Source: Breznakia sp. PF5-3 (GTDB taxonomy: Bacteria; Bacillota_I; Bacilli_A; Erysipelotrichales; Erysipelotrichaceae). From it: a stretch of DNA of 32,000 bases. Where the stretch lies: the NCBI RefSeq assembly GCF_029504745.1, contig NZ_JAQFIQ010000021.1:8923-40922 (forward strand), written 5' to 3'. Of the stretch, positions 3,418 to 30,600 are shown piece after piece. A program made the translations under genes and the position numbers. The first letter of the stretch is position 1; the number at the start of each line of letters is the position of its first letter. The notes below the pieces were generated by a model. It was given only the letters and a program-made list of their open reading frames with translations, was not told the origin of the DNA and did not search any database.

Positions 3418-3543
3418 GGAAATGAAATTTTTAATTATGAAAAAAGTATGAAAGAAAATGGAAATCATAAAAAGTTTACAGTGCAAGTCAGTAGAAGGCA
3501 CATATATACTTTAGTATACTTGATATAAGAATGGAGTATGGAT

Positions 3544-6063
3544 ATGAAAATAAAAAAGCGAGATAATACATTACAAGATTATAATAAAGAAAAAATTATG
3601 AAAGCGATTAAAGCAGCATTTGCAAGTCAGAATAATGATATTGATGAAACGGTGCTAATAGAAATTGTAAAGTCAATTGAAGATATTCTTATGAATGATA
3701 GAACTTTGCACAATGTAGAACACATTCAGGATTTAGTAGAAGAGAAGTTAATGGAGCATCAGTTTTATAAAGAAGCCAAAGCATATATTTTATATCGCCA
3801 AAAGCATACGGAAGAGCGTGAACTATTAGTAAAATTTGAAGCGATTGTGAAAGATGAACAATTGATAGAAGTAATGAGAAAAATACAGCGAGATTTTGGA
3901 GATGAAGTGTATTCTTTGGAACTTTTGTATCAAAAATTTCAATCTTTTATTAAAGTGGATATGAGTAAAGATGAACAATTGGAAATGTTGATGAAAGCCA
4001 GTGCTGAATTGATTAGTAAGCAAGCACCAAAATGGGAATTTATTGCAGCACGGTTTTTAACTTATCAATTAAATGCACAAATTGACTCACAAATGATGAA
4101 ATTGAATATTCATAGTTTTGCTGAAAAGATAGCATATCTTGAAAGTGAAGGGTACTATGGAAAGTATATAAGAGAAGCATATCAAGATGATGAGATAGCT
4201 GAATTGGAAACTTATATGAAAGAAGAACGTAATTATTTATTTACATATAGTGGTTTAGAACTTGTTGTGAAACGTTATCTTATTCAAAATAATGATCATG
4301 ATGTGCTTGAGAAAGTACAAGAGATGTTTATGGGGATCGCTATGCATTTAGCAATTCCCGAGAAAGAAAAGAAGGTATCGTGGGCGAAAGAAATTTATGA
4401 CATTCTTAGTACTTTAAAAGTAACGATGGCAACACCAACAATGTCAAATGCTAGAAAGCCTTATCACCAATTGTCTTCTTGCTTTATTGATACAGTGGGA
4501 GATTCTTTAACGAATATCTATAAGAGTATAGATAACTTTGCACAAGTATCAAAGTTTGGTGGTGGTATGGGATTGTACTTTGGAAAAGTGCGAGCAATTG
4601 GTTCTGATATCCGAGGCTTCAAAGGAGCCGCTGGAGGGGTTATTCGTTGGATTAAGTTAGTGAATGACACAGCAACAGCTGTTGATCAACTAGGAATGCG
4701 CCAAGGTGCTGTAGCTGTATATTTGGATGCATGGCATAAAGATTTACCAGAGTTTTTATCATTACGCACAAACAACGGAGACGATCGTATGAAAGCGCAT
4801 GATGTATTTCCAGCGGTTTGTTATCCTGATTTGTTTTGGAAGCTAGCAAAAGAAAATATTGATGCTGAATGGTCATTGATGTGTCCTCATGAAATTTTGA
4901 AAGTAAAAGGCTATGCATTAGAAGATTCTTTTGGCAAAGAGTGGGAAGAAAAGTACTGGGATTGTGTACAAGATATAAGAATTTCAAAAAGAGTAATGAA
5001 GGTTAAAGATTTGATTCGTTTAATTTTAAAGTCTGCAGTTGAAACAGGAACACCTTTTACCTTTAATCGTGACCATGTAAATGCTATGAATCCCAATCCT
5101 CATCAAGGAATGATTTATTGTAGCAATTTATGTACAGAAATTGCACAAAATATGCATGAAATTGAAATGCTTCCTAAAGAGATTATCAAGGTAGATGATG
5201 AAGAAATCATTGTAGAGAAAAGTAAGCCTGGGGATTTTGTAGTTTGTAATCTAGCATCATTAATTTTAGGTAATATTGATGTTGAAAATCAAACAGAATT
5301 AAAGCATACAATTGATGTAGTAGTAAGAGCACTTGATAATGTAATTGATTTAAATTATTATCCAGTCCCATATGCTGAGGTAACCAATCAAAAATATCGT
5401 TCAATTGGATTGGGAACGAGTGGGTATCATCACATGTTGAGTAAACATGGGATTGCATTTGAATCAGAAGAACATTTAACCTTTGTTGATAAAGTATATG
5501 ATGATATCAACTATTATACAATTCATGCTAGTATGGAATTAGCAAAAGAAAAAGACTACTATTCGTTATTTAAGGGTAGTGATTGGGATAATGGTGCATA
5601 TTTTGATAAACGAAATTATACAAGTGAAAGATGGACAGAATTAAGAGCTGATGTAAAACAATATGGAATTCGTAATGCATATCTTATGGCTATTGCTCCT
5701 ACAAGTTCTACGTCTATTATTGCGGGAACAACAGCTGCGGTAGATCCAATTATGAATAAATACTTTTTAGAAGAAAAGAAAGGTAGCATGATTGCTAGAG
5801 TTGCACCAGATCTTGATGGTAAAACATATTGGTTATATAAAAATGCTCATCAGATTGACCAACGATGGGTAATTGATGCGGCAGGAATTCGTCAACGTCA
5901 TATCGATCAAGCACAATCTGTGAATTTATATGTTACTAATGAGTATCGAATGTCAGAGCTTTTAAATCTATATATTAGAGCATGGGAACGTGGTGTGAAG
6001 ACAATTTATTATGTTAGAAGTAAAGCATTAGAAGTAGAAGAATGTGAATCATGTGCATCATAA
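3544..6063 (+). CDS. nrdA: Ribonucleoside-diphosphate reductase, class I alpha subunit with N-terminal ATP-cone
   Basis: N-terminal ATP-cone-like segment (KRDNTLQDYNKEKIMKAIKAAF ... AYILYRQKH). Catalytic signatures SSCFI, CSNLCTEI, GLGTSGYH and APTSSTS, plus C-terminal redox-shuttle cysteines CESCAS. ATG 3544 is preferred because GGAG (3533-3536) lies 7 nt upstream; the track's ATG 3538 is only 1 nt from it. Confidence 0.9.
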   Translation: MKIKKRDNTLQDYNKEKIMKAIKAAFASQNNDIDETVLIEIVKSIEDILMNDRTLHNVEHIQDLVEEKLMEHQFYKEAKAYILYRQKHTEERELLVKFEAIVKDEQLIEVMRKIQRDFGDEVYSLELLYQKFQSFIKVDMSKDEQLEMLMKASAELISKQAPKWEFIAARFLTYQLNAQIDSQMMKLNIHSFAEKIAYLESEGYYGKYIREAYQDDEIAELETYMKEERNYLFTYSGLELVVKRYLIQNNDHDVLEKVQEMFMGIAMHLAIPEKEKKVSWAKEIYDILSTLKVTMATPTMSNARKPYHQLSSCFIDTVGDSLTNIYKSIDNFAQVSKFGGGMGLYFGKVRAIGSDIRGFKGAAGGVIRWIKLVNDTATAVDQLGMRQGAVAVYLDAWHKDLPEFLSLRTNNGDDRMKAHDVFPAVCYPDLFWKLAKENIDAEWSLMCPHEILKVKGYALEDSFGKEWEEKYWDCVQDIRISKRVMKVKDLIRLILKSAVETGTPFTFNRDHVNAMNPNPHQGMIYCSNLCTEIAQNMHEIEMLPKEIIKVDDEEIIVEKSKPGDFVVCNLASLILGNIDVENQTELKHTIDVVVRALDNVIDLNYYPVPYAEVTNQKYRSIGLGTSGYHHMLSKHGIAFESEEHLTFVDKVYDDINYYTIHASMELAKEKDYYSLFKGSDWDNGAYFDKRNYTSERWTELRADVKQYGIRNAYLMAIAPTSSTSIIAGTTAAVDPIMNKYFLEEKKGSMIARVAPDLDGKTYWLYKNAHQIDQRWVIDAAGIRQRHIDQAQSVNLYVTNEYRMSELLNLYIRAWERGVKTIYYVRSKALEVEECESCAS

Positions 6064-6076
6064 TAGGAGGAAAACA

Positions 6077-7120
6077 ATGAGCGACTTACACAAGAAGGCA
6101 TTATTTAATGAGAATGGAGATAGCAATGTCTTACATCGAAGAATGATCAATGGTAATACTACCAATTTAAATGATTTTAATAATATGAAATATACATGGG
6201 TATCAAATTGGTATCGCCAAGCAATGAATAATTTTTGGGTACCAGAAGAAATTAATATGAATCAGGATATTAAAGATTATCGAAATCTTAATGAAGCGGA
6301 AAGGACAGCATATGATAAAACGCTCTCATTCTTGATTTTCTTGGATAGCATTCAAACCGCGAATTTACCAAACGTGGCTGAATATGTTACAGCAAATGAA
6401 GTAAATTTGTGTTTAACAATACAAGCCTTTCAAGAAGCTGTTCATTCACAAAGCTATAGTTATATGTTAGATACGATTTGTTCTCCAGAAGAACGTAGCG
6501 ATATCTTGTATCAATGGAAAAACGATGAACATTTGCTATCGCGAAATAAATTTATTGGGGATCTTTATAATGATTTTCAACTTCATAAAGATCGCTTTCA
6601 TTTAATGAAAACAATAATTGCAAATTATATTTTGGAAGGCATTTATTTTTATTCAGGATTTATGTTTTTCTATAATCTTGGAAGAATGGGAAAGATGCCT
6701 GGATCAGTGCAGGAAATTCGTTATATTAATCGGGATGAAAATACACATTTATGGTTATTTAGATCAATTATTTTAGAATTGAAGAAAGAAGAACCAGATT
6801 TATTCACTGATGAAAAAGTTGAATATTACAAAGATATGATGCGTGAAGGTGTCGAGCAAGAAATCAAATGGGGAAAATATGTTATAGGTGATAAGATTGA
6901 AGGATTAACCATGCAAATGGTTGAAGATTATATTCGCTACCTTGGTAATTTAAGGAGTACGGGTTTAGAGTTTGGTCCTTTATATGAAGGTTATGAAAAT
7001 GAACCTTCTTCTATGGAATGGGTAAGTATGTATGCGAATGCAAATCTAATCAAAACCGATTTCTTTGAAGCAAAATCGAGTGCATATGCAAAATCAAGTG
7101 CTTTGGAGGATGATCTATAA
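6077..7120 (+). CDS. nrdB: Ribonucleoside-diphosphate reductase, class I beta subunit
   Basis: Di-metal and radical-site motifs FLDS, QEAVHSQSYSYM, EGIYFYSGF and RDENTHL, with an acidic C-terminal tail ALEDDL. ATG 6077 is preceded by AGGAGG (6065-6070). The track start at 6044 overlaps the end of nrdA and lacks an SD. Confidence 0.9.
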   Translation: MSDLHKKALFNENGDSNVLHRRMINGNTTNLNDFNNMKYTWVSNWYRQAMNNFWVPEEINMNQDIKDYRNLNEAERTAYDKTLSFLIFLDSIQTANLPNVAEYVTANEVNLCLTIQAFQEAVHSQSYSYMLDTICSPEERSDILYQWKNDEHLLSRNKFIGDLYNDFQLHKDRFHLMKTIIANYILEGIYFYSGFMFFYNLGRMGKMPGSVQEIRYINRDENTHLWLFRSIILELKKEEPDLFTDEKVEYYKDMMREGVEQEIKWGKYVIGDKIEGLTMQMVEDYIRYLGNLRSTGLEFGPLYEGYENEPSSMEWVSMYANANLIKTDFFEAKSSAYAKSSALEDDL

Positions 7121-7182: not shown

Positions 7183-8247
7183 ATGCGACATAATAAGGAA
7201 ACATTTACAGAAAATTTATTACAATGGTATGATGAGAATGCTCGAATATTGCCTTGGCGTAGTGAACCAACGCCTTATCGTGTATGGGTTAGTGAAATCA
7301 TGTTACAGCAGACAAGAGTAGAAGCTGTGAGGCCATATTTTGAAAGGTTTATGAAAGCATTTCCTTCACTTTATGACTTAGCAGAGGCAACAGATGAGAA
7401 GTTGCATAAGATGTGGGAAGGTTTGGGATACTATAATCGAGTGAAAAATATGAAGAAGTGTGCCATTGTTTGTGTTGAACAATATGATGGTAAATTACCA
7501 AGCGATTATGAGATGCTATTAACGCTTCCAGGGATTGGAAGCTATACTGCAGGTGCCATTGCGTCTATTGCTTTTAAACAGCCTGTAGCGGCTGTAGATG
7601 GGAATGTATTGCGGGTTTTCTCAAGAGTTCTTGTAAGTGAAGATGATATTTTAAAAGAAGCAACTAAAAAGAAGTTTCAAACTATTATAAAATCTTACAT
7701 TCCAAAAAATCATGCAGATGCATTTAATCAAGCGTTAATGGAAATTGGAGCACTCATCTGTGTGCCAAATGCAGCACCACGATGTAATATATGTCCTCTT
7801 GCAAAGGATTGCCTAGGGTATCAAAGTGGAAAAGCTCCACATCTTCCTAACAAAAGCCCTAAGAAAAGACGTAGAATTGAAAAAAGAAGTGTTTTTGTAT
7901 TTGTTTATAAAAATAAATTACAAATTCAAAAACGCGAAGATAAAGGTTTGCTAGCAGGATTATATGAATTTCCAAACATTAATCAACACTACACTAAAAA
8001 AGCATTAGAAGAATATGTAGTAGAAAACTATCCTATGGAAAAAATAATACCTTTAACGAAAGCTAAACATATTTTTTCACATATCGAGTGGCATATGAAA
8101 GGGTATTTGATAGTATTAGAAAAACCAAATAAAGGTTTATTTATTACAATAGATGAATTGGAAACAATGTATGCATTACCAACAGCATTTAAAGTTTATT
8201 GTGAAGCAGTGATACAATATTTGGAGGATAAAAATGAAACAGATTGA
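7183..8247 (+). CDS. mutY: A/G-specific adenine DNA glycosylase
   Basis: N-terminus LLQWYDENARILPWR, HhH-GPD motif LPGIGSYTAGAIASIAF, Fe-S cluster loop CVPNAAPRCNICPLAKDC, and a C-terminal NUDIX-like domain. Confidence 0.9.
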   Translation: MRHNKETFTENLLQWYDENARILPWRSEPTPYRVWVSEIMLQQTRVEAVRPYFERFMKAFPSLYDLAEATDEKLHKMWEGLGYYNRVKNMKKCAIVCVEQYDGKLPSDYEMLLTLPGIGSYTAGAIASIAFKQPVAAVDGNVLRVFSRVLVSEDDILKEATKKKFQTIIKSYIPKNHADAFNQALMEIGALICVPNAAPRCNICPLAKDCLGYQSGKAPHLPNKSPKKRRRIEKRSVFVFVYKNKLQIQKREDKGLLAGLYEFPNINQHYTKKALEEYVVENYPMEKIIPLTKAKHIFSHIEWHMKGYLIVLEKPNKGLFITIDELETMYALPTAFKVYCEAVIQYLEDKNETD

Positions 8248-9928: not shown

Positions 9929-9962
9929 GGTTGAGAACCATATAGTGGTTCTTGACCTTTTT
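9929..9962. terminator. Bidirectional terminator shared by the convergent DegV and solute-binding-protein genes
   Basis: GGTTGAGAACCA-tatag-TGGTTCTTGACC, a 12-bp stem with two G-T wobbles, flanked by an A-run and a T-run. Confidence 0.7.
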
Positions 9963-11265
9963 ATTCTTTTAGTGAGGTTTCAATTTTATTTTGTAAAGAA
10001 ACCATTTCCGTTTTAATATCACTTTCACTATTTATGATTCTATATATTTCATTATCAATCAAAGAAGTAACGCTTTCAAATTTTTTGAACCGATATTGTG
10101 TCTTTCCATTTTCCATTACTTCATTTAATAGATACATTTGAAATAGGCTATCCCCTGGAGTATCACTGGAAATAATATCAATTGCTTCCTCAGATTTTGT
10201 TATCTCACGTAAAACGGATACCCCTTGTGAATGCTTAAAAATTTCTAATTGTGTTTGCTGATCATAGGATAAAAGTTTTAGTAGTTCCCAAGCTTCATCT
10301 TTATGCTTTGATTGAGCATTCATACCAATTAATAATGTATCAACCTTTGAAATGTTATCACCATTGGGACCCGAAGGAAGCATTACACAATCCCATTCAA
10401 AGTTAGAGTATTTTTTTACTTTCCAGGGATAAGGTTTATAAGTGCGATATTCAGAAAATGGCATGATACAGAAAGCAACATTTCCTTCATCAAACATTTG
10501 TGAAGTGACATGAACATTGTCATTCAATTCGTTTAATTGTCGTAAAAATCGAATTGATTCAATCGCGTTGGTATTATTGAAATCATTAACGTCTTCTTTT
10601 TCATCAAAAAGAGCAATTCCATTTGCAAACATAGCATCTTCCCATGTGTATCCATAAACGCCAAATTGATCTATTTTTCCATCATTATCTGTATCTTTTG
10701 ATACCTTTTTACAAATTTCATAAAAATCATTCCATGTCCAATTATTGTTAGGTAGTGAAATACCTTCCTTCTCTAATAATGACTTATTTACAAAGACAAG
10801 GTTAGGAACACTTTCATAGGGTAATGCATACATATGGTTATTATCCATTCCAGTAGCGTAAGAGGAAGGGTAATAGGCTTCTGTATCAAAATTATTATCA
10901 TTAGCAATATAAGAGTCTAAGTTTTCAAGTAAACCAACTTGATGAAAGGTTGTAAAATCATCAGATAGAACAAAGAAAATATCAGGTGCATCACCATTTA
11001 AAGTTTCCCCTGCTAACCACTCTGAATAATCACTTTTTCTAATCCCGCTCATAAATTTTACACGAACATTAGGATGTTCCTTTTCGTAGCGCTCTATAAC
11101 ATTTTGAACAATTTGATAAGAGTCTGCCGTAGGGACATCCCAATTACTTCCCGCAAAAACCCCAATGGTAATTACTTTATGAGAACTTTGGATGATCGCA
11201 TATCCAACTCCAACGCATAAACAGATAGCAATTGCTATAATTGATATTATATATTTTCGTTTCAT
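9961..11265 (-). CDS. Extracellular solute-binding protein (ABC family-1 type, sugar-like), membrane-anchored, with no cognate permease or ATPase nearby
   Basis: 434-aa ORF with an N-terminal hydrophobic anchor (IISIIAIAICLCVGVGYAII) followed by a family-1 SBP-like sequence. Its ATG overlaps the regulator stop (ATGA). Confidence 0.75.
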   Translation of the reverse strand: MKRKYIISIIAIAICLCVGVGYAIIQSSHKVITIGVFAGSNWDVPTADSYQIVQNVIERYEKEHPNVRVKFMSGIRKSDYSEWLAGETLNGDAPDIFFVLSDDFTTFHQVGLLENLDSYIANDNNFDTEAYYPSSYATGMDNNHMYALPYESVPNLVFVNKSLLEKEGISLPNNNWTWNDFYEICKKVSKDTDNDGKIDQFGVYGYTWEDAMFANGIALFDEKEDVNDFNNTNAIESIRFLRQLNELNDNVHVTSQMFDEGNVAFCIMPFSEYRTYKPYPWKVKKYSNFEWDCVMLPSGPNGDNISKVDTLLIGMNAQSKHKDEAWELLKLLSYDQQTQLEIFKHSQGVSVLREITKSEEAIDIISSDTPGDSLFQMYLLNEVMENGKTQYRFKKFESVTSLIDNEIYRIINSESDIKTEMVSLQNKIETSLKE

Positions 11266-11936
11266 TCGTGTGAACTATTTTTGCGATTTCCGCTTTGTAG
11301 ATACCAAATTGCCAACTGCGTGCGATCGCGAAGTTGTAATTTGTCTAGAATAATACTTAAGTAATTGCGAATAGTACCTTCTGTAAAATGAAGTTCATGA
11401 GCAATTTCTTTATTTGAAAGACCTAAACCAACCTTTTCGATTACTTGCCATTCTTTATCACTTAAATTTTGAACACCACTTTCATCAGTTTGGATATTTA
11501 CTTGGCTATGATTTGCCATTTCTGAAAATAAGTTGATAGCCTTTGTTGCAACATTAGGATGAATGATGGAACCACCATTATGCACTGTTTTAATAGCAGA
11601 AGTTAGTTCATTAGGAGATACTTCTTTCAATAAATATCCATCTGCTCCATATTTTAATGCGTTATAGATATATTCATCATCATCAAAAGTAGTCAACAAA
11701 ATGATTTGAATATCAGGATACGTTTCTTTGATGATCTTTGTACACTGCACACCATCCATCTCAGGCATTCTAATATCCATTAGAATTAGATCAGGTTTCT
11801 TTTTTTGGATACTATTTAATACCTCAGCACCTGTTTTAACTAAATCAATAACTTGAAAATCATCTTTTGCATTCAATAAGATATTTAAACTTTCTCTAAT
11901 TAATTCTTGATCATCCGCAATAATAATATTAATCAT
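11262..11936 (-). CDS. Two-component response regulator, NarL/FixJ (LuxR-type HTH) family
   Basis: Receiver domain (DDQELIRE ... LILMDIRMPEMDG ... LLTTF ... GADGYLLK) plus a C-terminal LuxR HTH (LSNKEIAHELHFTEGTIRNYLSIILDKL). AAGGAG lies 7 nt upstream of the ATG. Confidence 0.9.
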   Translation of the reverse strand: MINIIIADDQELIRESLNILLNAKDDFQVIDLVKTGAEVLNSIQKKKPDLILMDIRMPEMDGVQCTKIIKETYPDIQIILLTTFDDDEYIYNALKYGADGYLLKEVSPNELTSAIKTVHNGGSIIHPNVATKAINLFSEMANHSQVNIQTDESGVQNLSDKEWQVIEKVGLGLSNKEIAHELHFTEGTIRNYLSIILDKLQLRDRTQLAIWYLQSGNRKNSSHE

Positions 11937-13245
11937 TCATATTCTCCTTCCGCAGTGGAATTTCAGCGACCACAACAAACCCATCTAGACCATAGACACG
12001 CATCGTTCCATTCAACAAATCAATTCTCTCTTTCATATGATGTAAACCAAATCCATACTGTATTTTTTTACTTCCGATTCCATTATCTTCAATTAATAAT
12101 ATTATATTATTGTTATCCAGTGCAATCGAAACAAATATTTTTGTTGCATTCCCATGTCGAACGGAGTTTGTTATAGATTCCTGAATAATACGATAAATAG
12201 TATCTTCTTCATCAGGTTCAAAAGCTAAGGTTGGCATATGGCAAGCAAAGCGTATTTCAATATCAGAAAGTAATTGAAAATCGGCAATCATCTGTTCAAT
12301 GGCTTCTTTTAAAGTATGTCTTTCAAGGGCATCAGGACGTAGCTTGTTGACTGATCGACGTACATCGGTAAGACCTTGTCTAGCCGTTTTAGATAAACGC
12401 TCTAATTGCTTTTTAGATGCCTCTGGATTATCATCAAGTAACATCATTGATGCATCAATGCCCATAGACAAACCAGTTAGTGTATGCCCTAAAGTATCAT
12501 GTATTTCTCTAGCCAAACGATTTCGTTCTTTTGTTTCTCCCATTTTTTCTTGAATACTTGCATATTCTTGTAATTGTTTATTCAAAAGCTGTAATTCACT
12601 ATTTAATTGTAAAACCCTTCTACTTTCATTTACTTCTTTTAAAATCATCATCACCATGATTAATAAAAATAAAACAATGCTAATCGTATTTAATGAATTC
12701 ATAATTACATTTAAAATATTTTGTGTATCACTACCAAAAAAAGAAGTATAATCATTAAATGAAACCATTGGTATAAAAGATAACAGATTGAAATTACATA
12801 GCATATAAATAATAACAGTAATGAATAAATATAAATAACGTTTTTCATTAAACCTAGCATATACAAAAAAATTGGTCATTACTAGTAGTAAGATGGAATT
12901 ATTTGCAAAACTGGTATAGTACATAATAATCATGCTTAAGGAAATTACTGTGATATAAATAAAAACATTCATGAAACGTGTTAATTCTTGAATTTTTTTG
13001 ATTTGTAGCAAACATAATAAAATGCCAAATGAAATAATAGAAAAGACAATTATTTGATAGGGTGGAGAAGGAGGTAAGGTACTTAATTTTTCCAAAAAAT
13101 AAAGTGAAGAATGATTATCAATCATTCTTTGGATACAAATGTACATAACTCCAGAAATAAAAGAAATGATAATGAAGTTAATACAGCATAGAACTAGATA
13201 TGCCAAATCCAGGCGCTGATTAAGTTTATTTGTATTATTTTTCAT
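11929..13245 (-). CDS. Sensor histidine kinase, HisKA_3 (NarX/DegS-like) type, with a ~6-TM N-terminal domain
   Basis: H-box REIHDTLGHTLTGL and ATPase motifs (NSVRHGNA, DNGIG, GFGLHHM). The N-terminal half contains multiple hydrophobic helices. ATG 13245 is preferred because an SD-like GGGTGG lies 8 nt upstream. The track's GTG 13257 would overlap the upstream gene by 10 nt. Confidence 0.85.
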   Translation of the reverse strand: MKNNTNKLNQRLDLAYLVLCCINFIIISFISGVMYICIQRMIDNHSSLYFLEKLSTLPPSPPYQIIVFSIISFGILLCLLQIKKIQELTRFMNVFIYITVISLSMIIMYYTSFANNSILLLVMTNFFVYARFNEKRYLYLFITVIIYMLCNFNLLSFIPMVSFNDYTSFFGSDTQNILNVIMNSLNTISIVLFLLIMVMMILKEVNESRRVLQLNSELQLLNKQLQEYASIQEKMGETKERNRLAREIHDTLGHTLTGLSMGIDASMMLLDDNPEASKKQLERLSKTARQGLTDVRRSVNKLRPDALERHTLKEAIEQMIADFQLLSDIEIRFACHMPTLAFEPDEEDTIYRIIQESITNSVRHGNATKIFVSIALDNNNIILLIEDNGIGSKKIQYGFGLHHMKERIDLLNGTMRVYGLDGFVVVAEIPLRKENMND

Positions 13246-13247
13246 AA

Positions 13248-14258
13248 TTACTGCCACCCTTCGATTGTATAATTATGAATCGTTTCTTTGGTGATCAACT
13301 CTACATCGATGAGTTCTGTTTTTTGTGGTATATCATCATTTAGTAGTTGGTATCCGATTTCAGCTGCCCTTCTACCCATTCTGATGGGAGATTGAGCAAC
13401 GGTACCACGCATTTTATTATCTCGAATTAATGCTTTTGTCTCTGGTGTGCCATCAACTCCATAAACTAGAATGCCATCTAATAGGTCATGTTCTTGAAGC
13501 GCGGCCATTGCACCCATTGCACTAGGGTCATTTAAAGCCATAACAACATCAAATTTAATTCCTTCTTCAATCGCTTCATTTACGATAGGTGTTGCATTTT
13601 CTAATTGTCCCTCACAGTTTTTCCGATAAACAATATGGTAATGTTCAGGGTCAATTGTATCTGTAAAACCTTGAATCCGTTGGATAGCAGATTGTACATT
13701 GCTATGTTCTAACAGCAAGATGTTTGCTTCATCTAATTGTGACATCATATCTTCAGCAGCTTGAACACCAGCATTGTAATTATCAGAAACAACTGTATAA
13801 GACACTAGTTCATCGTCTTTAATATTTGTATCCACTACGACGACTTTCACATTTTCTTCTTTGCAACGTTTTAATACATCACTTAATCCTTCCCAATCAA
13901 TTGGATTCACAAAAAGAACTTCAATCCCTTTATCAAGCATATAATTAATTTGCTTGATTTGCTCATCCAATGACAATGCTGGATCTAATGTAATAAGAAT
14001 ATCACCGTTTGCTTCCACCACACTTTTTATTTCATCGTTTATAATTTCAAAAAAAGGGTTGTTCATAGTCATATAGGAAGCACCAAAGTAAACAGGTTCT
14101 TTGATACGGTCTTTAATATGCGTTTTTGAATAACTATCAAAACTCAGCAAGCCAATTACAGTAATGGCAAGCGTAAGAATAATAATTGCTACAGCTTTAA
14201 AAGAAAAAGAGCTATTATTTACCATCTTTAAAAAGGCCTCCTTTTTCTTTTTTATCAT
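13248..14258 (-). CDS. Periplasmic-binding-protein type 1 (RbsB-like sugar-binding) protein, membrane-anchored; probable sensory partner of the kinase
   Basis: 336-aa ORF with an N-terminal TM anchor (FKAVAIIILTLAITVIGLL) followed by an RbsB/PBP1-like sequence (VYFGASYMTMNNPFF ... VLFVNPID ... VVVVDT ... VSDNYNAG). AGGAGG lies 9 nt upstream of the ATG. Confidence 0.8.
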   Translation of the reverse strand: MIKKKKEAFLKMVNNSSFSFKAVAIIILTLAITVIGLLSFDSYSKTHIKDRIKEPVYFGASYMTMNNPFFEIINDEIKSVVEANGDILITLDPALSLDEQIKQINYMLDKGIEVLFVNPIDWEGLSDVLKRCKEENVKVVVVDTNIKDDELVSYTVVSDNYNAGVQAAEDMMSQLDEANILLLEHSNVQSAIQRIQGFTDTIDPEHYHIVYRKNCEGQLENATPIVNEAIEEGIKFDVVMALNDPSAMGAMAALQEHDLLDGILVYGVDGTPETKALIRDNKMRGTVAQSPIRMGRRAAEIGYQLLNDDIPQKTELIDVELITKETIHNYTIEGWQ

Positions 14259-20719: not shown

Positions 20720-20795
20720 TGGTGGTCCCGGTCGGAATCGAACCAACGACACAAGGATTTTCAGTCCTTTGCTCTACCGACTGAGCTACGGGACC
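20720..20795 (-). tRNA. tRNA-Phe (GAA)
   Basis: The reverse complement GGTCCCGTAGCTCAGTCGGTAGAGCAAAGGACTGAAAATCCTT...GGTTCGATTCCGACCGGGACCACCA folds as a cloverleaf. The anticodon loop is CTGAAAA and CCA is encoded. Confidence 0.9.
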
Positions 20796-20798
20796 ATT

Positions 20799-20875
<77 letters not shown>

Positions 20876-20901
20876 ATAAATGGTATACTAAATTTTAAGA
20901 A

Positions 20902-20992
20902 TGGCGGAGGAACTGGGATTCGAACCCAGGCGCCAGTTTCCCGACCTACCGGTTTTCAAGACCGGACCCTTCAGCCACTTGGGTATTCCTCC
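20902..20992 (-). tRNA. tRNA-Ser (UGA)
   Basis: 91 nt with a long variable arm. The anticodon loop is CTTGAAA and CCA is encoded. Confidence 0.9.
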
Positions 20993-21012
20993 AAATAGAT
21001 TCTTTTTTTAAA

Positions 21013-21089
21013 TGGTGGACCCTACAGGACTCGAACCTGTGACCCACCGGTTATGAGCCGGATGCTCTGACCAACTGAGCTAAGGGTCC
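21013..21089 (-). tRNA. tRNA with CAU anticodon, most likely tRNA-Ile2 (lysidine-modified)
   Basis: The reverse complement is GGACCCTTAGCTCAGTTGGTCAGAGCATCCGGCTCATAACCGG.... From memory, the GGACC..TTAGCTCAGTTGGT.AGAGCA body resembles Bacillus tRNA-Ile(CAU) rather than elongator Met. Confidence 0.7.
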
Positions 21090-21109
21090 AGCTTAAGCAT
21101 TAAATAAAA

Positions 21110-21186
21110 TGGTGGCTGAAGTGAGACTCGAACTCACGACCTTCCGGGTATGAACCGGATGCTCTAGCCAGCTAAGCTACCCAGCC
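21110..21186 (-). tRNA. Elongator tRNA-Met (CAU)
   Basis: The reverse complement is GGCTGGGTAGCTTAGCTGGCTAGAGCATCCGGTTCATACCCGG.... The anticodon loop is TTCATAC and CCA is encoded. Confidence 0.8.
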
Positions 21187-21196
21187 AAAATTTTAA

Positions 21197-21273
21197 TGGT
21201 CGGGAAGACAGGATTCGAACCTGCGACCCCCTGGTCCCAAACCAGGTGCACTACCAAGCTGTGCTACTTCCCG
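21197..21273 (-). tRNA. tRNA-Pro (UGG)
   Basis: The reverse complement is CGGGAAGTAGCACAGCTTGGTAGTGCACCTGGTTTGGGACCAGG.... The anticodon is TGG. Confidence 0.9.
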
Positions 21274-21292
21274 AATACTCTAAATAAATAAA

Positions 21293-21369
<77 letters not shown>

Positions 21370-24812: not shown

Positions 24813-24837
24813 GAACTTATTCACTGTAATTTACGAC
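24813..24837 (+). promoter_or_regulatory. ECF-type promoter (GAAC-N17-CGAC) upstream of the bactofilin-sigma operon
   Basis: GAAC at 24813-24816 and CGAC at 24834-24837, exactly 17 nt apart. The downstream CGACTATAAATTGAGAGG is near-identical to the second copy at 27541. Confidence 0.6.
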
Positions 24838-24994
24838 TATAAATTGAGAGGGTGTGTATCCAAGGAAGATAGTGGCGTATGTATTATGGGATAAGTTCGT
24901 TTTTTTAGTATATTAAAGTATTTATAATAACAAAGTTATCAGGTTATTATGAAAATAGCATATTTCTTATATTGGGAGCAAGAGGAGAAAAGAC

Positions 24995-26050
24995 ATGGAT
25001 ATATTGACAGGGGCTAACATATTTTCGTTTAATGTAATAATTGCAATTTTATCATTTGTAATCGCAGTATTAATAATTACGTATATCATACGTAAGATTC
25101 TTTTATATCAATTGAAAAAGGAAATCGAATTAGCAGTAGATGTGTATGAAACTCTTTATCAAGAAGTAAATAGTAGTGAATGGGAATATTTGTCAAACTT
25201 AGCGAAACATGATAAGCAAATAGACATGTTGCTTGAACAAAGTAATATGCATGATAATTATAATAGGTTATCTGAAGATTTAAGAGCTTGTAAGTTGTTA
25301 CTTAATGATTTTAATGCACAAAACCTAGGAGATATGGATCGAAGAACAGTAAACTCTACGTTAACATTTATCAATGGATTGATGGATAATATGGAAGATA
25401 CGATTTCAGATTTTTATCATGCTTGTATCCAGCAAACACAGTCTTTAAAATTAGATTCTAAAGTAGATGTGATTCAAAAACATGAGCAAGTGGAACCAAA
25501 ACGTCAACCAGTACAACAAAGCGTAAAATCTTTAAATAAAGAAATAGTGAAACCAAAAACTAGCAATGAAGAACCAAAGCCTAAAGTTGATCAACGACCA
25601 AATATAATAATGCAGGATTTAAAAGGAAATGAAGGTGTTTCAATAATTTCATCACAAACAAAGATAGATGGAAATATTATTGCGAAAGAAGAAGTAATGA
25701 TACTAGGAAAGGTAAATGGATCTGTAAAATCAGAAAAATATATAGAAATTGATGCAGATGCGCAAATCAAGGGAAAACTTATTGCTCCTATGGTGCATAT
25801 AAAAAGTGGTAGTTTACTTTGTGATATTTTAGCTTCAAAACAAATATTTATATCGGAAAAGGGATATATAAAAGGAAATATTGAAACGCAAGACATTGTA
25901 GTTGCTGGAACTATTGAAGGGAATATGAAGACAAGTAGTTTAAATGTAAATGAAAGTGCAAAGATTTTTGGTGATATTTATACCAATGTAATTGAAATAG
26001 AAAAAGGTGCACAAATCAGTGGGGAATTTACGATGACTCAAGAAGCATAA
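24995..26050 (+). CDS. Membrane-anchored bactofilin-domain (DUF583/CcmA-like) protein
   Basis: An N-terminal TM helix (IFSFNVIIAILSFVIAVLIITYII) is followed by RK. Next come a helical region, a Lys/Pro-rich linker, and a C-terminal ~130 aa of bactofilin-type beta-helix repeats (IDGNIIAKEEVMILGKVNGSVKS ... IKGKLIAP ... IKGNIETQDIVVAGTIEGNM ... IFGDIYTNVIEIEKGAQISGEF). GAGGAG SD. Confidence 0.8.
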   Translation: MDILTGANIFSFNVIIAILSFVIAVLIITYIIRKILLYQLKKEIELAVDVYETLYQEVNSSEWEYLSNLAKHDKQIDMLLEQSNMHDNYNRLSEDLRACKLLLNDFNAQNLGDMDRRTVNSTLTFINGLMDNMEDTISDFYHACIQQTQSLKLDSKVDVIQKHEQVEPKRQPVQQSVKSLNKEIVKPKTSNEEPKPKVDQRPNIIMQDLKGNEGVSIISSQTKIDGNIIAKEEVMILGKVNGSVKSEKYIEIDADAQIKGKLIAPMVHIKSGSLLCDILASKQIFISEKGYIKGNIETQDIVVAGTIEGNMKTSSLNVNESAKIFGDIYTNVIEIEKGAQISGEFTMTQEA

Positions 26051-26147
26051 TGCAAAGAATAGAATAAAGCGAATAAGATATAAGGATAGTTACATATGTA
26101 TATAGAAGATGTCAGTAGAATATTTTATAAATAATAAGGGGGACAAT

Positions 26148-27515
26148 ATGGAAACTAAAAGAATAAGTCATGAAGTCATTCAAGCATTCAAAGATGGAAG
26201 TGAAGAAGCGTTTGCGAAAATTTATGATCACTATTTTAATCGAGTGTTGTTTTTTGCTTATAATCATTTGAGTGATACGGATTTAGCACAAGATGTGGTG
26301 CAAAATACTTTTCTCTCTGTATATCGAGGTATTAGCAAATTGCAACACCTTGAAGCTTTTCATGCTTGGATTATGCGAATTGCATATTGTGAGTGTCAGA
26401 ATATATATAGAAAGAATAAAATCAAAACCGTTGATTTGCCAGAGTATATGGACATTGATGCTCTAGAGGATAATAAGAGTGATACAATTGATGAACAGAT
26501 GGAGGATAAGGTTCTTCAAGATATTGTTTCTAAAGAAATAAAAATGATGAATAATAAGATAAAAGATGTTGCCATTCTTAAATATTTAGAGGGATTAAGT
26601 GAGAAGGAGATATCAGGAATTTTAAGAATTCCTAAAGGAACTGTTAAAAGTAGAACATATAAAGCTAAGGTTATTCTTCAAGATAGTTTAAAGAAAAATG
26701 GAATAACTCCAGGTACATATAAAACATATGGTTTTTCAATTCCTACTATTTTTGTTTCTGCTTGTTACTACATGCAAACGCAAATACCTACTGTACAGCC
26801 AGATTACACAACGATTGTGAACACTGCAAAAGGAATTGGTGGTGGAATAGGATTAGCAACTGGAATTAGTGCAGTTAATGGTTCAACAGCTAAAATTGGC
26901 GGATCTATGGCAAAACGATTAATTACAGGAGGAGTTGTTGCCACAATTACAATTTCTGGAGGTCTTTTATTGAATAGAGCCCCAACTGTTGCAGTCGGAG
27001 TGAATCCAGTTCATCTAGATAAAAAAGCTCCTGCTGTTGCACCAGAGAAGTGTCAAATACAAGATGTTATCTATAGTGAAGAATTTACAAATCAACTTGT
27101 ACATGTAGAAGTGAAAGTAACCAATGATAACTACGATGAGATATTAATTAATGGTGTACAAACTCAAGAGATTCATGAAAATGGGGATTATGTAATCCAA
27201 ATTATGTTTGAAGGAAACGTTGTAGATGAAAGAGTTATTTCGATAAACAATATTGATAGAACACCAACGGAATATCTTGGCTATTCTGCTGATGGAAACG
27301 TATATACAGTTTATTTAAATGATACCCAATCGAAAATAAATCCAGCCATGATTAAATATTATAAAAATGGACAATTGAATACGAACTTTACTTTTAATCA
27401 AGAAACGCAAACCATTCATTTTAATTATGAAGATTATACGGAAAATATTTTTGAAATACATGATAACGCAGGAAACGTAGTGGATGTTACAGTTGTTTCT
27501 AAATATTTGAAATAA
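26148..27515 (+). CDS. ECF-type sigma-70 family factor fused to hydrophobic/TM segments and a C-terminal ~190-aa probable extracytoplasmic Ig-like domain
   Basis: Region 2 (DLAQDVVQNTFLSVYRGI ... HAWIMRIAY) and region 4 HTH (LSEKEISGILRIPKGTVKSRTYKAKVIL) lie in the first ~195 aa. Hydrophobic and Gly-rich segments follow (FSIPTIFVSACYYM, GIGGGIGLATGISAV, LITGGVVATITISGGLLL), then a beta-rich tail. ATG 26148 is preceded by AAGGGGGA; the track start at 26109 is less likely. Confidence 0.8.
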   Translation: METKRISHEVIQAFKDGSEEAFAKIYDHYFNRVLFFAYNHLSDTDLAQDVVQNTFLSVYRGISKLQHLEAFHAWIMRIAYCECQNIYRKNKIKTVDLPEYMDIDALEDNKSDTIDEQMEDKVLQDIVSKEIKMMNNKIKDVAILKYLEGLSEKEISGILRIPKGTVKSRTYKAKVILQDSLKKNGITPGTYKTYGFSIPTIFVSACYYMQTQIPTVQPDYTTIVNTAKGIGGGIGLATGISAVNGSTAKIGGSMAKRLITGGVVATITISGGLLLNRAPTVAVGVNPVHLDKKAPAVAPEKCQIQDVIYSEEFTNQLVHVEVKVTNDNYDEILINGVQTQEIHENGDYVIQIMFEGNVVDERVISINNIDRTPTEYLGYSADGNVYTVYLNDTQSKINPAMIKYYKNGQLNTNFTFNQETQTIHFNYEDYTENIFEIHDNAGNVVDVTVVSKYLK

Positions 27516-27519
27516 TTTC

Positions 27520-27544
27520 GAACCTTTTAAAATGAAGTAGCGAC
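27520..27544 (+). promoter_or_regulatory. Second ECF-type promoter (GAAC-N17-CGAC) upstream of the giant surface-protein gene
   Basis: GAAC at 27520-27523 and CGAC at 27541-27544, 17 nt apart, followed by CGACTTTAATACTGAGATGG. It starts 5 nt after the sigma gene stop and lies 57 nt upstream of ATG 27601. Confidence 0.6.
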
Positions 27545-27600
27545 TTTAATACTGAGATGGATTAAAAATTCCATTGAGTATTGTAAGGATGGAGGAAAAA

Positions 27601-30600
27601 ATGGTCAAAAGAGAAAAGAAAAAAGGAAACTTAACATCTTATTTCTACAAACTTTTTGTTGTGTTCTTGGCAGCATTTATGATGCTTACAAGTTTACCAA
27701 CAGAAATATTTGCGAGTGCTAATGAGACATCTTCGCAAACAGTTGAAAAAACAGATGCTAGTGTTTCTAATTCAAATGAAAGCAATTTGAATGAAACAAC
27801 GAATCTTCATGATGAAGATTCTAATGGTAATTTATGGCTTAGCTTTATGCGAAGTCCGCTTAAACCTAGAGGAAATGGAGATGCTCCCGATTATGGGCAA
27901 GTATCTGCAGTTCGTTTTACACAAGCCGATCAAGGATTGTTGAGTGGACTTGCATTAGATACCAATGGAAAAGTATGGACATGGGGATATAATGAACATG
28001 GTATCCAAGGGTGTGGCTATACTGCTACTGGTATGTATAATGGTGGTATGAAACGTATCCCATACTTTACAGAAAACGATATTAATATTGTTTCTATTGA
28101 AAGTGGATATTATACTGCATATGCAATTGATGATAAAGGTCAAGTATATGTATGGGGACGTGGAATTGAAGGTCAGATGGGAGATGGTTCAAACCGTAGT
28201 GTTAACCAAACTCCAAAACCAATCGCAGCATTATCAGGTGTTAAAATTAGAAAAATAGTAACTGGTATTGAAGCGGCATCTCATACGTACGCAATGGCTG
28301 AAGATGGTCGTATTTTTGCATGGGGATATGCAGATAACAATAGAATTCCAAATAGTGGTGTTTATGTTACTACACCAAAAGAAATGACAAGTTTAAATGG
28401 GTTAAATATTGTTGATATATCATTAGGTGATGCACACTGTATGTTCCTTAGCAAAGATGGAAAAGTGTACACACAAGGATATGGTTATCAAGGTCGACTT
28501 GGACATGGAAACACAACAAATGTGAATTATCCTAAAGAAGTTGAATGGTTTGCAAATAACAATAAAAAAGTTGTGCAAATTTCAGCTTCAACAAATTCAA
28601 GTTTAGCCCTTACTGAAGATGGTAAAATTTACCAATGGGGTCATATAGCAACAAGTGTTGGTGGATTTACAACAATGTTAACACCTACAGAAGTAGGTAT
28701 AGATTTAACAAGTAATCCATATGGATATACACCAGAGTGGCAAAAAATTATCTGTGGGCGTTATACAAGCTATGTAATTGATACACATGGTCGTGTTTGG
28801 AGTTGGGGATCAAATGTTTTCTATTCTTTTTCAACCGATGGACCGATGGCACCAGCAAATGTTGGAGCAGGAAATCCAGATCCAACTAGATATGGGAAAT
28901 TACATGAAGTTCGTTTAAAAGCGACAATGCAACCTCTTACCATGGGTGATGGAGATACTCAAGAATATATTCAAGCAGTAAAGGGACCAGTTTTTTCAAA
29001 TTGGCCTACAAGCGGTGCTTATGGTACATACATGAATGAAACGATAAATACATATCGTTGGTGGGGGAATTTCTCTGATATAGCAAATGGAATGCATCCT
29101 ACAATTTATGATAAAAAATATTGTAAAACCGTTGGGGAGTTTTCAAATAATAATCCAACAACTTTAGCTGCGTTAGCAACAGCGCATTCAAAAGTGTATC
29201 TAGTGGATGAGAAGGACAGAAGACTAGTATATGTAGTTAGAAAAGATGGAGCTAGTACAATTTCGGGAAACTATTATGTAGCTGAAGATAGTTATACTGG
29301 GACTTGGTTGGTAGACAATCGTTCAACATATGATCTTCCATCAGGAGTAACAGAAGAAACAAGTGTTCCAGCAATTAAAGAAAAAGAAAAAGGTTGGATT
29401 GGTCTTGCAGTCGACTTAGAAACTCATAATTGGACTGGACATAATATGAAACAAACTCCTTATATGATAGATATTAGTACATATCAATCTTCAAGTTTAT
29501 ATGTTGATGCTTCAGGTAACTTGTACAAAACAACGTATGATGGCGCCGGAGCTATTGCTTGGGGTTGGGATAATGAACTTTATGATTTACATACAGGAAG
29601 TGTTAGACCAGGAGAAGGATTATATAATAAGTATAATCATGAGTTAGTATTTATGAGAGGTGCACCAATGGTAACGCCTGTAGATGTTACCATTCAAAAG
29701 AGTACATCAAAAATTTACCAAACAGAGGGTAATACAAAAAGTGATAAAGTAACTGTAAAAGCAGATATTCCAGCAGCATATGTAGATGAAGATATGAATA
29801 TTAAATTTACATCGGATTTACGAGATGTAAAATATGTATTTGTTCCATATGATAAATCAAATCCAGATTTTAATATTGCTGATGATGAATTGACAATTGA
29901 TCAATTTAATGCAATGTATAATAATTCCGCATATACGAAGAAAGCAGATTTATTAGACGACACGATCAGTGGTGGTGATGATGGTAAAGAATGGAAAGAT
30001 GAAATAGAAATAACTGAGAATGGTAGAATTTATGTGTTAACAGTAGATAATGCTTATGGTAAAGTTACAAATACTTTAAAAGCATATACTGCAGATAACT
30101 TCTATACACCAGCAGTTATTGAACATGTTGGAAATGGATATGTAGATGGAAAAATCTATGAAGAAATTTATGCTCCAACAAGTGAAAATGTTACTAAGAC
30201 AAAAGAGGGAACAGATACTTCGGATGTATATGGAGTGCCTTTAGATGCTAAAGGAAATGTAATTGAAAACCCTACTTTTGGATATGATAAAGTGAAAGTC
30301 GAAAAATATGATGTTCTTCCAAATGGTGAAGATAAATATTGGTTATTTAGTACACCACAAGATGGCTCATTATCATTGACATTGGATGATAAAAAATATG
30401 TTGATGAAGATTTTACACATGAGTTTAAATACGAAAGAAATCCATCAGGATGGATAACAATTAGTTATGAAGGAAAAGATATAGATTCAGGTCTAGCTTT
30501 ACCTGCATTTAGTATGGATCCAAATCCTGAGATTGTAAAAATTGATAAAGAATTAACTAGAACTCCTCCAGAAATTTCAGATTATGAGATATTAGGATAC

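Follow-up and report, generated by a model that had tools for sequence, protein, structure and literature searches.

Extracytoplasmic function (ECF) sigma factors read promoters that typically share AAC at the −35 position, a −10 element specific to the group and a spacer of 14–17 nt, and CGAC is the −10 element of the σX autoregulatory promoter of Bacillus subtilis (PMC5758882). Here we analyze a 32,000-nt stretch of DNA from Breznakia sp. PF5-3, referred to throughout as the window, in which two copies of the sequence GAAC-N17-CGAC flank a pair of genes encoding a membrane-anchored bactofilin and a membrane-tethered ECF sigma factor, the second copy lying in front of a gene for a giant surface protein. 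We consider it very likely that both sites are functional ECF-type promoters read by the sigma factor encoded between them, the first (P1) being autoregulatory and the second (P2) serving the giant gene as a target.

The closest described promoters are the σX autoregulatory promoter and those of the σX/σW/σM/σV class in general, in which, as here, an AAC-containing −35, a 17-nt spacer and a CGAC −10 followed by T stand before the sigma factor's own operon. The −35 of the Breznakia sites is GAAC(C), however, not tGtAAC, and the sigma factor is not a SigX ortholog; it is itself tethered to the membrane, whereas the factors of the σX class are held by a separate anti-sigma factor. With respect to tethering, the comparison is with IutY of Pseudomonas putida (ECF243) and SCO4117 of Streptomyces coelicolor (ECF52), which combine sigma domains, a transmembrane (TM) segment and an extracytoplasmic domain in one polypeptide and for which proteolytic release is known, or has been proposed, to be the mode of activation (PMC8999054). 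Those proteins carry a recognizable anti-sigma or zinc-finger segment, whereas none was detected here, and they come from Proteobacteria and Actinobacteria, whereas the present sigma factor is from the Erysipelotrichaceae, has an all-beta outer part and has bactofilins as operon partners.

Two further systems are related through the neighbors of the sigma gene. Activation of σV and σP starts with a site-1 cut in RsiV and RsiP, respectively, that is made by a type I signal peptidase (PMC4183432, PMC8844934), and a signal peptidase gene of the S26 family lies beside the sigma gene in most operons orthologous to the one studied here. The operon in the window lacks such a gene, however, and no conserved cleavage motif past the TM helix was seen when the homolog alignment was inspected by eye. 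The B. subtilis bactofilins BacE and BacF bind the regulator BacR and reduce its DNA binding; recruitment of BacR to the membrane has been proposed, and vancomycin shifts BacR from the membrane to the nucleoid (PMC13649987). Both there and here, bactofilin genes are co-encoded with a transcription factor that controls, or in our case would control, their operon; BacR, however, is a DUF4004 DNA-binding protein and not a sigma factor, and the Breznakia bactofilin has a TM helix of its own. We take the BacR precedent as a lead toward a possible regulatory role of the bactofilin, not as evidence for one.

Results

Two GAAC-N17-CGAC Sites Flank the Bactofilin-Sigma Operon

A search of both strands of the window for GAAC-N17-CGAC returned exactly two matches, at 24813–24837 and 27520–27544, both on the plus strand. 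The expectation from shuffled sequence was 0.11 matches per window, and two or more matches occurred in none of 100 shuffles (0/100). An earlier sequence-only reading of this DNA had described the pair, its 17-nt spacers and the lack of a third instance, all of which the exact count bears out; its descriptions of the adjoining genes as encoding a bactofilin, an ECF sigma factor and a giant surface protein agree with the Pfam and NCBIfam matches reported below.

Both sites are intergenic, lie on the coding strand of the next gene and are aimed at the genes downstream. The putative autoregulatory promoter P1 (24813–24837) consists of a −35 GAAC at 24813–24816, the 17-nt spacer and a −10 CGAC at 24834–24837; it is preceded by an A-rich tract, lies 157 nt upstream of the ATG at 24995 and has a predicted transcription start at about 24843–24846. 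The putative target promoter P2 of the giant gene (27520–27544) begins 5 nt past the stop codon of the sigma gene, has its −35 GAAC at 27520–27523, followed by the T-tract CTTTT, and its −10 CGAC at 27541–27544, and leaves 56 nt between its end and the ATG at 27601; the predicted transcription start is at about 27550–27553.

Apart from the boxes, the two sites are dissimilar. Their spacers share 7 of 17 nucleotides, and an ungapped alignment of the 40 nt that follow gives 8 of 40 matches; their likeness outside the boxes does not exceed that of random AT-rich DNA, and they therefore do not represent two copies of a repeat element. When spacers of 16–18 nt and CG[AT]C were permitted, only one extra match appeared in the window, at 20922 within a tRNA T-arm. 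This match, GAAC-N16-CGAC in the T-arm of one tRNA, is a false positive for relaxed promoter searches, and the same tRNA match is found in the metagenomic locus L161. A scan of the window for σ70-type promoters was uninformative, with matches no more numerous than in shuffled sequence.

Both Sites Are Conserved in Related Loci

Homologous loci were taken from reference genomes and assemblies; L001 is from B. pachnodae, and L161, L164, L166, L168/L169, L180 and L181 are metagenomic. Upstream of the bactofilin operon, GAAC-N17-CGAC was present in all loci of the Breznakia clade, 7 of 7 distinct loci (L001 7074, L161 7504, L164 7036, L166 2265, L168 6109 and L180 117). Directly after the sigma gene, it was exact in 7 of 7 loci in which the region is present (L001 11354, L161 11450, L164 11354, L166 5431, L168 8724, which equals L169 1573, and L181 1562), with one further locus carrying a CGGC variant; L180, whose contig ends 87 nt past the sigma gene, was left out of this count. 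The downstream sites directly follow or overlap the sigma stop codon and lie upstream of the giant gene. The co-occurrence of the motif with orthologous gene trios, raised as a check by the sequence-only reading, was found, both positions being kept in every related locus with the region present. The loci with the exact motif represent five lineages; sigma protein identity between these lineages does not exceed 51%, and identity to the sigma protein of the window is 44–51%.

In an alignment of 15 sites, the conserved elements were an upstream A-tract, GAAC(C) and (a)CGACTT(t)A, giving the consensus GAACc...aCGACTTtA, with the information content of the spacer near zero. The spacer length was 17 nt in 17 of 17 sites (13 CGAC and 2 CGGC sites in the alignment and 2 more CGAC sites listed). 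The leaders that follow have diverged and align poorly except at ribosome-binding sites. All sites are on the coding strand, 56–235 nt upstream of a start codon. The sites thus combine the features of ECF promoters: an AAC-containing −35, a CGxC −10, an unconserved spacer of fixed length within the range of 14–17 nt, and a copy upstream of the sigma factor's own operon.

A position matrix trained on 13 sites from other genomes, with the window left out, scored P2 at 25.0 bits and P1 at 20.1 bits; elsewhere in the window, scores did not exceed 7.3 bits, and the best match in 30 shuffled windows was 15.0 bits. As a negative control, 1.66 Mb of unrelated ECF loci contained 84 motif matches, mostly in GC-rich DNA and at the rate given by base composition, and the motif never stood in front of the local sigma gene in these sequences.

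A third site of the GAAC-N17-CGACT type was observed in B. pachnodae (L001 6836–6860, minus strand), pointing away from the bactofilin operon. It precedes a gene for a 774-residue protein (L001 4467–6791, minus strand) with a signal peptide, a C-terminal hydrophobic membrane anchor and no Pfam match. This gene is a probable extra member of the regulon; tblastn found no homolog of the protein in the window.

Elements Adjoining the Sites

The sequence-only reading had also noted that the similarity continues downstream as CGACT-w-TAA-n2/3-TGAGA-k-GG. This similarity is present as written and includes, after P1, the purine-rich, Shine-Dalgarno-like element TGAGAGGG (24845–24852, plus strand) and, after P2, its purine-rich counterpart TGAGATGG (27553–27560, plus strand), each at roughly +2 to +10 relative to the predicted start. 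In both classes, the majority of sites have a tGAkrGG-like element 10–13 nt past CGAC (window, L001, L161, L164, L166, L168, L180 and L181), and A58, G62 and G63 are invariant in the alignment of the upstream sites. Complementarity to the anti-Shine-Dalgarno sequence at the 3′ end of 16S rRNA was modestly enriched (mean −5.7 versus −3.4 kcal/mol; 11 of 20,000 resamplings). The element could be a 5′ stabilizer of the Shine-Dalgarno type or a part of the promoter.

In most lineages, the −35 of the giant-gene promoters is adjoined by a T-tract (GAACCTTTT), which the operon promoters mostly lack. In the window, the contrast is between 27524–27528 and 24817–24821, and the same contrast was observed in L001, L161, L166 and L181. 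Several ECF sigma factors are stimulated by a T-tract close to the −35, and such tracts raise ECF promoter activity in B. subtilis (PMC5758882).

Variant Sites in Divergent Loci

The locus with the CGGC variant, L167 (sigma protein P0003), carries GAAC-N17-CGGC at both sites, 62–86 and 1923–1947, with the same flanks, so that the −10 has changed in step at the two positions. In the alignment of sigma proteins inspected by eye, P0003 showed no unique region 2 substitution that would explain CGGC. Because one sequencing run (SRR22859383) yielded both L167 and L169, the latter with sigma protein P0006 and CGAC sites, a single community, or even a single genome, may harbor two such modules that differ in their −10 element.

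More distant orthologs of the sigma protein, at 32–35% identity (L178, L179 and L003), are encoded without bactofilin genes. GGAACC and a T-tract come right after the sigma stop codon, and AGTC or ACTC takes the place of CGAC (L178 4950–4990, L179 2570–2610 and L003 7815–7860). Every downstream gene examined across the family encodes a hydrophobic, signal peptide-like N terminus, as judged by eye from the translations; this was also seen for the next gene in L178, L179, L003 and L170 (a VWA-domain protein). The arrangement of a sigma gene and an adjacent gene for a secreted protein seems older than the link to a giant adhesin.

The Sigma Factor Is Fused to a Membrane Anchor and an Outer Domain

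The sigma gene (26148–27515, plus strand) encodes 455 residues comprising regions 2 and 4 (residues 1–185), a linker, a TM helix and an all-beta outer domain (residues 300–455). The protein matches PF04542 (1.3e-10) and PF08281 (3e-7) and scores 76.1 bits with the TIGR02937 sigma70-ECF model, against a cutoff of 42.9; with regions 2 and 4 present and regions 1.1 and 3 absent, it is a member of the ECF (group 4) branch of the σ70 family. Named NCBIfam ECF models all remained under their cutoffs, the best scores being 104 bits against 208 for PRK12518, an unnamed model, and 101 against 209 for SigW. Identity as an ortholog of B. subtilis SigX was considered and rejected because no named ECF equivalog exceeded its cutoff, there is no separate anti-sigma gene, and the context is that of bactofilin and giant genes. 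The sigma protein has a 100% identical match in Breznakia sp. PF5-3 (Erysipelotrichaceae), and no other sigma gene was found among the scanned open reading frames of the window.

An AlphaFold2 (AF2) model based on an alignment of 15 homologs has sigma helices at residues 8–183, a low-confidence linker and a helix at about residues 255–274 over the hydrophobic stretch LITGGVVATITISGGLLL; residues 300–455 are all-beta, with a predicted local distance difference test (pLDDT) score above 90. In Foldseek searches, the N-terminal part matched ECF sigma factors, with B. subtilis SigW at the top (5wuq; E 7e-10, TMt 0.70); for the C-terminal part, there were only weak matches to tandem Ig/FN3-like modules. 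The TM segment and the extracytoplasmic domain are thus located C-terminal to region 4 in one polypeptide, as in other sigma factors with a fused membrane extension, and this layout is kept in the 15 homologs, which are the full-length homologs of the fused sigma factor found in a collection of 5.8 billion proteins. A scan of Joint Genome Institute (JGI) metagenomes with the sigma alignment returned unrelated ECF sigma factors only, with matches confined to the sigma domain, and added no orthologous loci.

The homolog alignment revealed two conserved segments. A GITPxTYKTYGF motif is located in the linker between region 4 and the TM helix, and the region 4 helix bearing GTVKSR is invariant or nearly so in the family. 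We take this helix to be the one that reads GGAAC in Escherichia coli σE.

The Bactofilin Has a TM Helix and a Clade-specific Helical Bundle

The bactofilin gene (24995–26050, plus strand) encodes 351 residues with a match to PF04519 (E 1.3e-24). The protein consists of an N-terminal TM helix, a juxtamembrane helical bundle, a disordered Lys/Pro linker and a C-terminal bactofilin beta-helix, the domain (DUF583/bactofilin) that places it in the bactofilin family. The N-terminal hydrophobic helix is followed by basic residues, and by the positive-inside rule the rest of the protein is predicted to be cytoplasmic. The AF2 model has a mean pLDDT of 77.8, with both folded parts confident. Its best Foldseek match is the bactofilin of Thermus thermophilus (6rib; E 9.9e-3, TMt 0.66), and no match reaches an E value of 0.001.

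In the ortholog alignment, the bundle (residues 33–145, encoded at 25091–25430) is the best-conserved part, the linker is variable, and Cys99 and Cys144 are invariant. The bundle has no Pfam family, and Foldseek gave only generic helical bundles, with E values above 0.1. An exhaustive HMMER search of 1.84 billion representative proteins found the bundle in three orthologs and in two repeat-type matches only, and the sole match in a word-indexed homolog search with the bactofilin was the bactofilin itself. The idea that the bundle is an anti-sigma domain is unsupported: there was no Pfam match, Foldseek found no likeness to anti-sigma domains, and the HMMER search, apart from the two repeat-type matches, found the bundle only in this clade.

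A Giant Surface-protein Gene Follows without an Intervening Terminator

The gene downstream of P2 (27601–32000, plus strand) is open to the end of the window, with at least 1,466 codons and no stop. This 5′ part of the giant gene encodes a secreted surface protein with a signal peptide, an RCC1-like beta-propeller and DUF11/DUF7927 repeats (PF25390, 5e-57; PF00415, PF01345, PF25549 and TIGR01451). L001, L161, L164, L167 and L169 likewise have an orthologous giant gene after the sigma gene. Four assemblies with an identical sigma gene (L174–L177) all stop inside the giant gene because its repeats break short-read assemblies.

A terminator scan found no terminator-like hairpin between 24300 and 27800, and an Rfam scan of the window found seven tRNAs only, with no Rfam family in either leader. 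Since no terminator separates the sigma and giant genes, read-through from P1 probably reaches the giant gene; P2 is therefore probably an internal or boosting promoter and not the only link to that gene.

Orthologous Operons Contain Additional Genes

In related loci, the operons are larger (L001 7192–9988, L161 7619–9989, L164 7151–9988, L166 1591–4063 and L180 235–2677) and encode, before the sigma factor, a small soluble bactofilin of about 166 residues, sometimes a DUF1307-like lipoprotein, the TM-bactofilin and a Peptidase_S26 signal peptidase. The type I signal peptidase gene is directly upstream of the sigma gene in most of them. When the B. pachnodae proteins were used as tblastn queries, neither a signal peptidase homolog nor a separate small-bactofilin gene was found in the window, the small-bactofilin query matching only the bactofilin domain of the TM-bactofilin gene.

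Other Genes in the Window

A cluster of seven tRNA genes is located at 20723–21369 (minus strand). Four genes at 9961–14258 (minus strand) encode two solute-binding proteins, one of them a periplasmic binding protein of the sugar-binding type, along with a HisKA_3 histidine kinase and a LuxR-type response regulator; this looks like a sugar-sensing two-component unit unrelated to the promoter pair. Genes of the teichoic acid type, for a cytidylyltransferase and two CDP-glycerol glycerophosphotransferases, occupy 22–2790, and the genes for ribonucleotide reductase (3538–7120) and a MutY-like glycosylase (7183–8247) come after them; all of this is ordinary housekeeping context.

Discussion

The proposal of the sequence-only reading, that the sigma factor drives its own operon and the giant gene, is supported by the comparative data. 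In the mechanism that we propose, recognition of the GAAC(C) −35 would fall to region 4 of the sigma factor and that of the CGACTT −10, across the 17-nt spacer, to region 2. We infer the assignment of the motif to the adjacent sigma factor from their adjacency and co-variation.

Several observations weigh against this reading. The linker of the sigma factor (residues 186–254) has no anti-sigma (ASD/ZAS) Pfam match, and the model has a pLDDT below 50 there. About 410 nt, including a hairpin, separate the sigma gene of L167 from its upstream variant site, which was therefore given less weight. Loci of the B. blatticola type (L002 and L170) carry only a degenerate version, CGTCTTAAG after the sigma stop codon with a −35 that is only GATCC-like, and the Coprobacillaceae locus L004 has no recognizable site. 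ECF sigma factors of B. subtilis overlap in promoter recognition (PMC5758882), and another sigma factor could therefore use P1 and P2. A look-alike upstream in the B. blatticola-type loci was rejected as too close to the start codon, and the L002 and L170 sites were left uncounted.

The overlap in recognition leads to the alternative that survives best, namely that P1 and P2 are genuine ECF promoters but chiefly serve another ECF sigma factor, one whose gene is located elsewhere in the genome, so that the tethered sigma gene would be regulated without being the regulator. Cross-recognition among B. subtilis ECF factors with similar −35 and −10 preferences (PMC5758882) makes such a case conceivable, but the motif tracks the tethered sigma gene at both of its flanks in five lineages with no more than 51% identity, and the −10 shifts in step at the two L167 sites and drifts with sigma divergence in the distant orthologs. 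The scanned open reading frames of the window, moreover, contain no second sigma gene, and autoregulatory promoters in B. subtilis tend to be specific for their own sigma factor (PMC5758882). We regard this alternative as unlikely.

Still less probable, in our view, is that the boxes are not a promoter at all but are either bound as a bipartite site by a regulatory DNA-binding protein or act at the RNA level, at the 5′ or 3′ terminus of a transcript. The conserved purine-rich tGAkrGG element just downstream would fit such a role, as would the second site, since it directly adjoins the 3′ end of the sigma gene, a place equally suited to a signal for processing or termination. The boxes are asymmetric, however, forming neither a palindrome nor a direct repeat, and the fixed 17-nt spacer of unconserved sequence between them is the signature of sigma factor −35 and −10 elements; the sequence fits known ECF consensus elements (PMC5758882), the constant strand and the distance of 56–235 nt to a start codon suit promoters, and neither a terminator-like hairpin nor an Rfam family was found. 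That the two matches arose by chance in AT-rich intergenic DNA is effectively refuted: the core motif specifies just 8 bases, but two matches occurred in none of the 100 shuffles at 0.11 expected per window, the motif is at both homologous positions in every related locus, and the matrix trained without the window picks exactly its two sites.

Because the sigma factor is tethered and carries an outer beta-sandwich, it is probably inactive until freed by regulated proteolysis, as are other membrane-fused ECF sigma factors. Once released, it would raise transcription of its own operon, in a positive feedback, and of the adhesin-like giant gene, with P2 driving or boosting this RCC1/DUF11 gene. 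By analogy with RsiV and RsiP, the signal peptidase encoded in the operons of relatives may be the releasing protease, or it might instead process the giant protein. The sequence-only reading had called the module self-contained, which was an overstatement: the operons of relatives add a signal peptidase and a second bactofilin, and tblastn with the B. pachnodae proteins detected no separate gene for either in the window.

A more speculative possibility, to which we give a small chance, is that the sigma factor is not simply freed by proteolysis but forms a spatial device with the membrane-anchored bactofilin polymer, in which the clade-specific helical bundle with its two invariant cysteines would hold or position the tethered sigma factor so that the giant adhesin is transcribed, translated and exported at a defined site on the membrane, or that the bactofilin is a polymer-forming anti-sigma factor. 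The basis for this idea is the conserved co-occurrence of the two genes in the operon, together with the precedent of BacR and its bactofilins.

The regulatory logic itself, an autoregulated ECF sigma factor with a neighboring target gene, is textbook and ordinary for ECF sigma factors. What is new is the family: a tethered ECF sigma factor of the Firmicutes type with beta-sandwich outer domains, membrane bactofilins, a signal peptidase in relatives and giant surface proteins as predicted targets. A literature search found no paper on a system combining a bactofilin, a tethered sigma factor and a giant protein. The promoter pair provides a testable wiring diagram for a gene family that has no characterized member, and the aaaa-GAAC-N17-CGACTT motif can be used to define the regulon in complete genomes.

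The family is so far restricted to Breznakia, an insect-gut bacterium, and to related Erysipelotrichales from animal guts. In these bacteria, the tethered sigma factor appears to control very large surface proteins that are likely related to attachment, and the partnership of bactofilin and signal peptidase offers a tractable case for how fused sigma factors of Gram-positive bacteria are kept inactive and then released.

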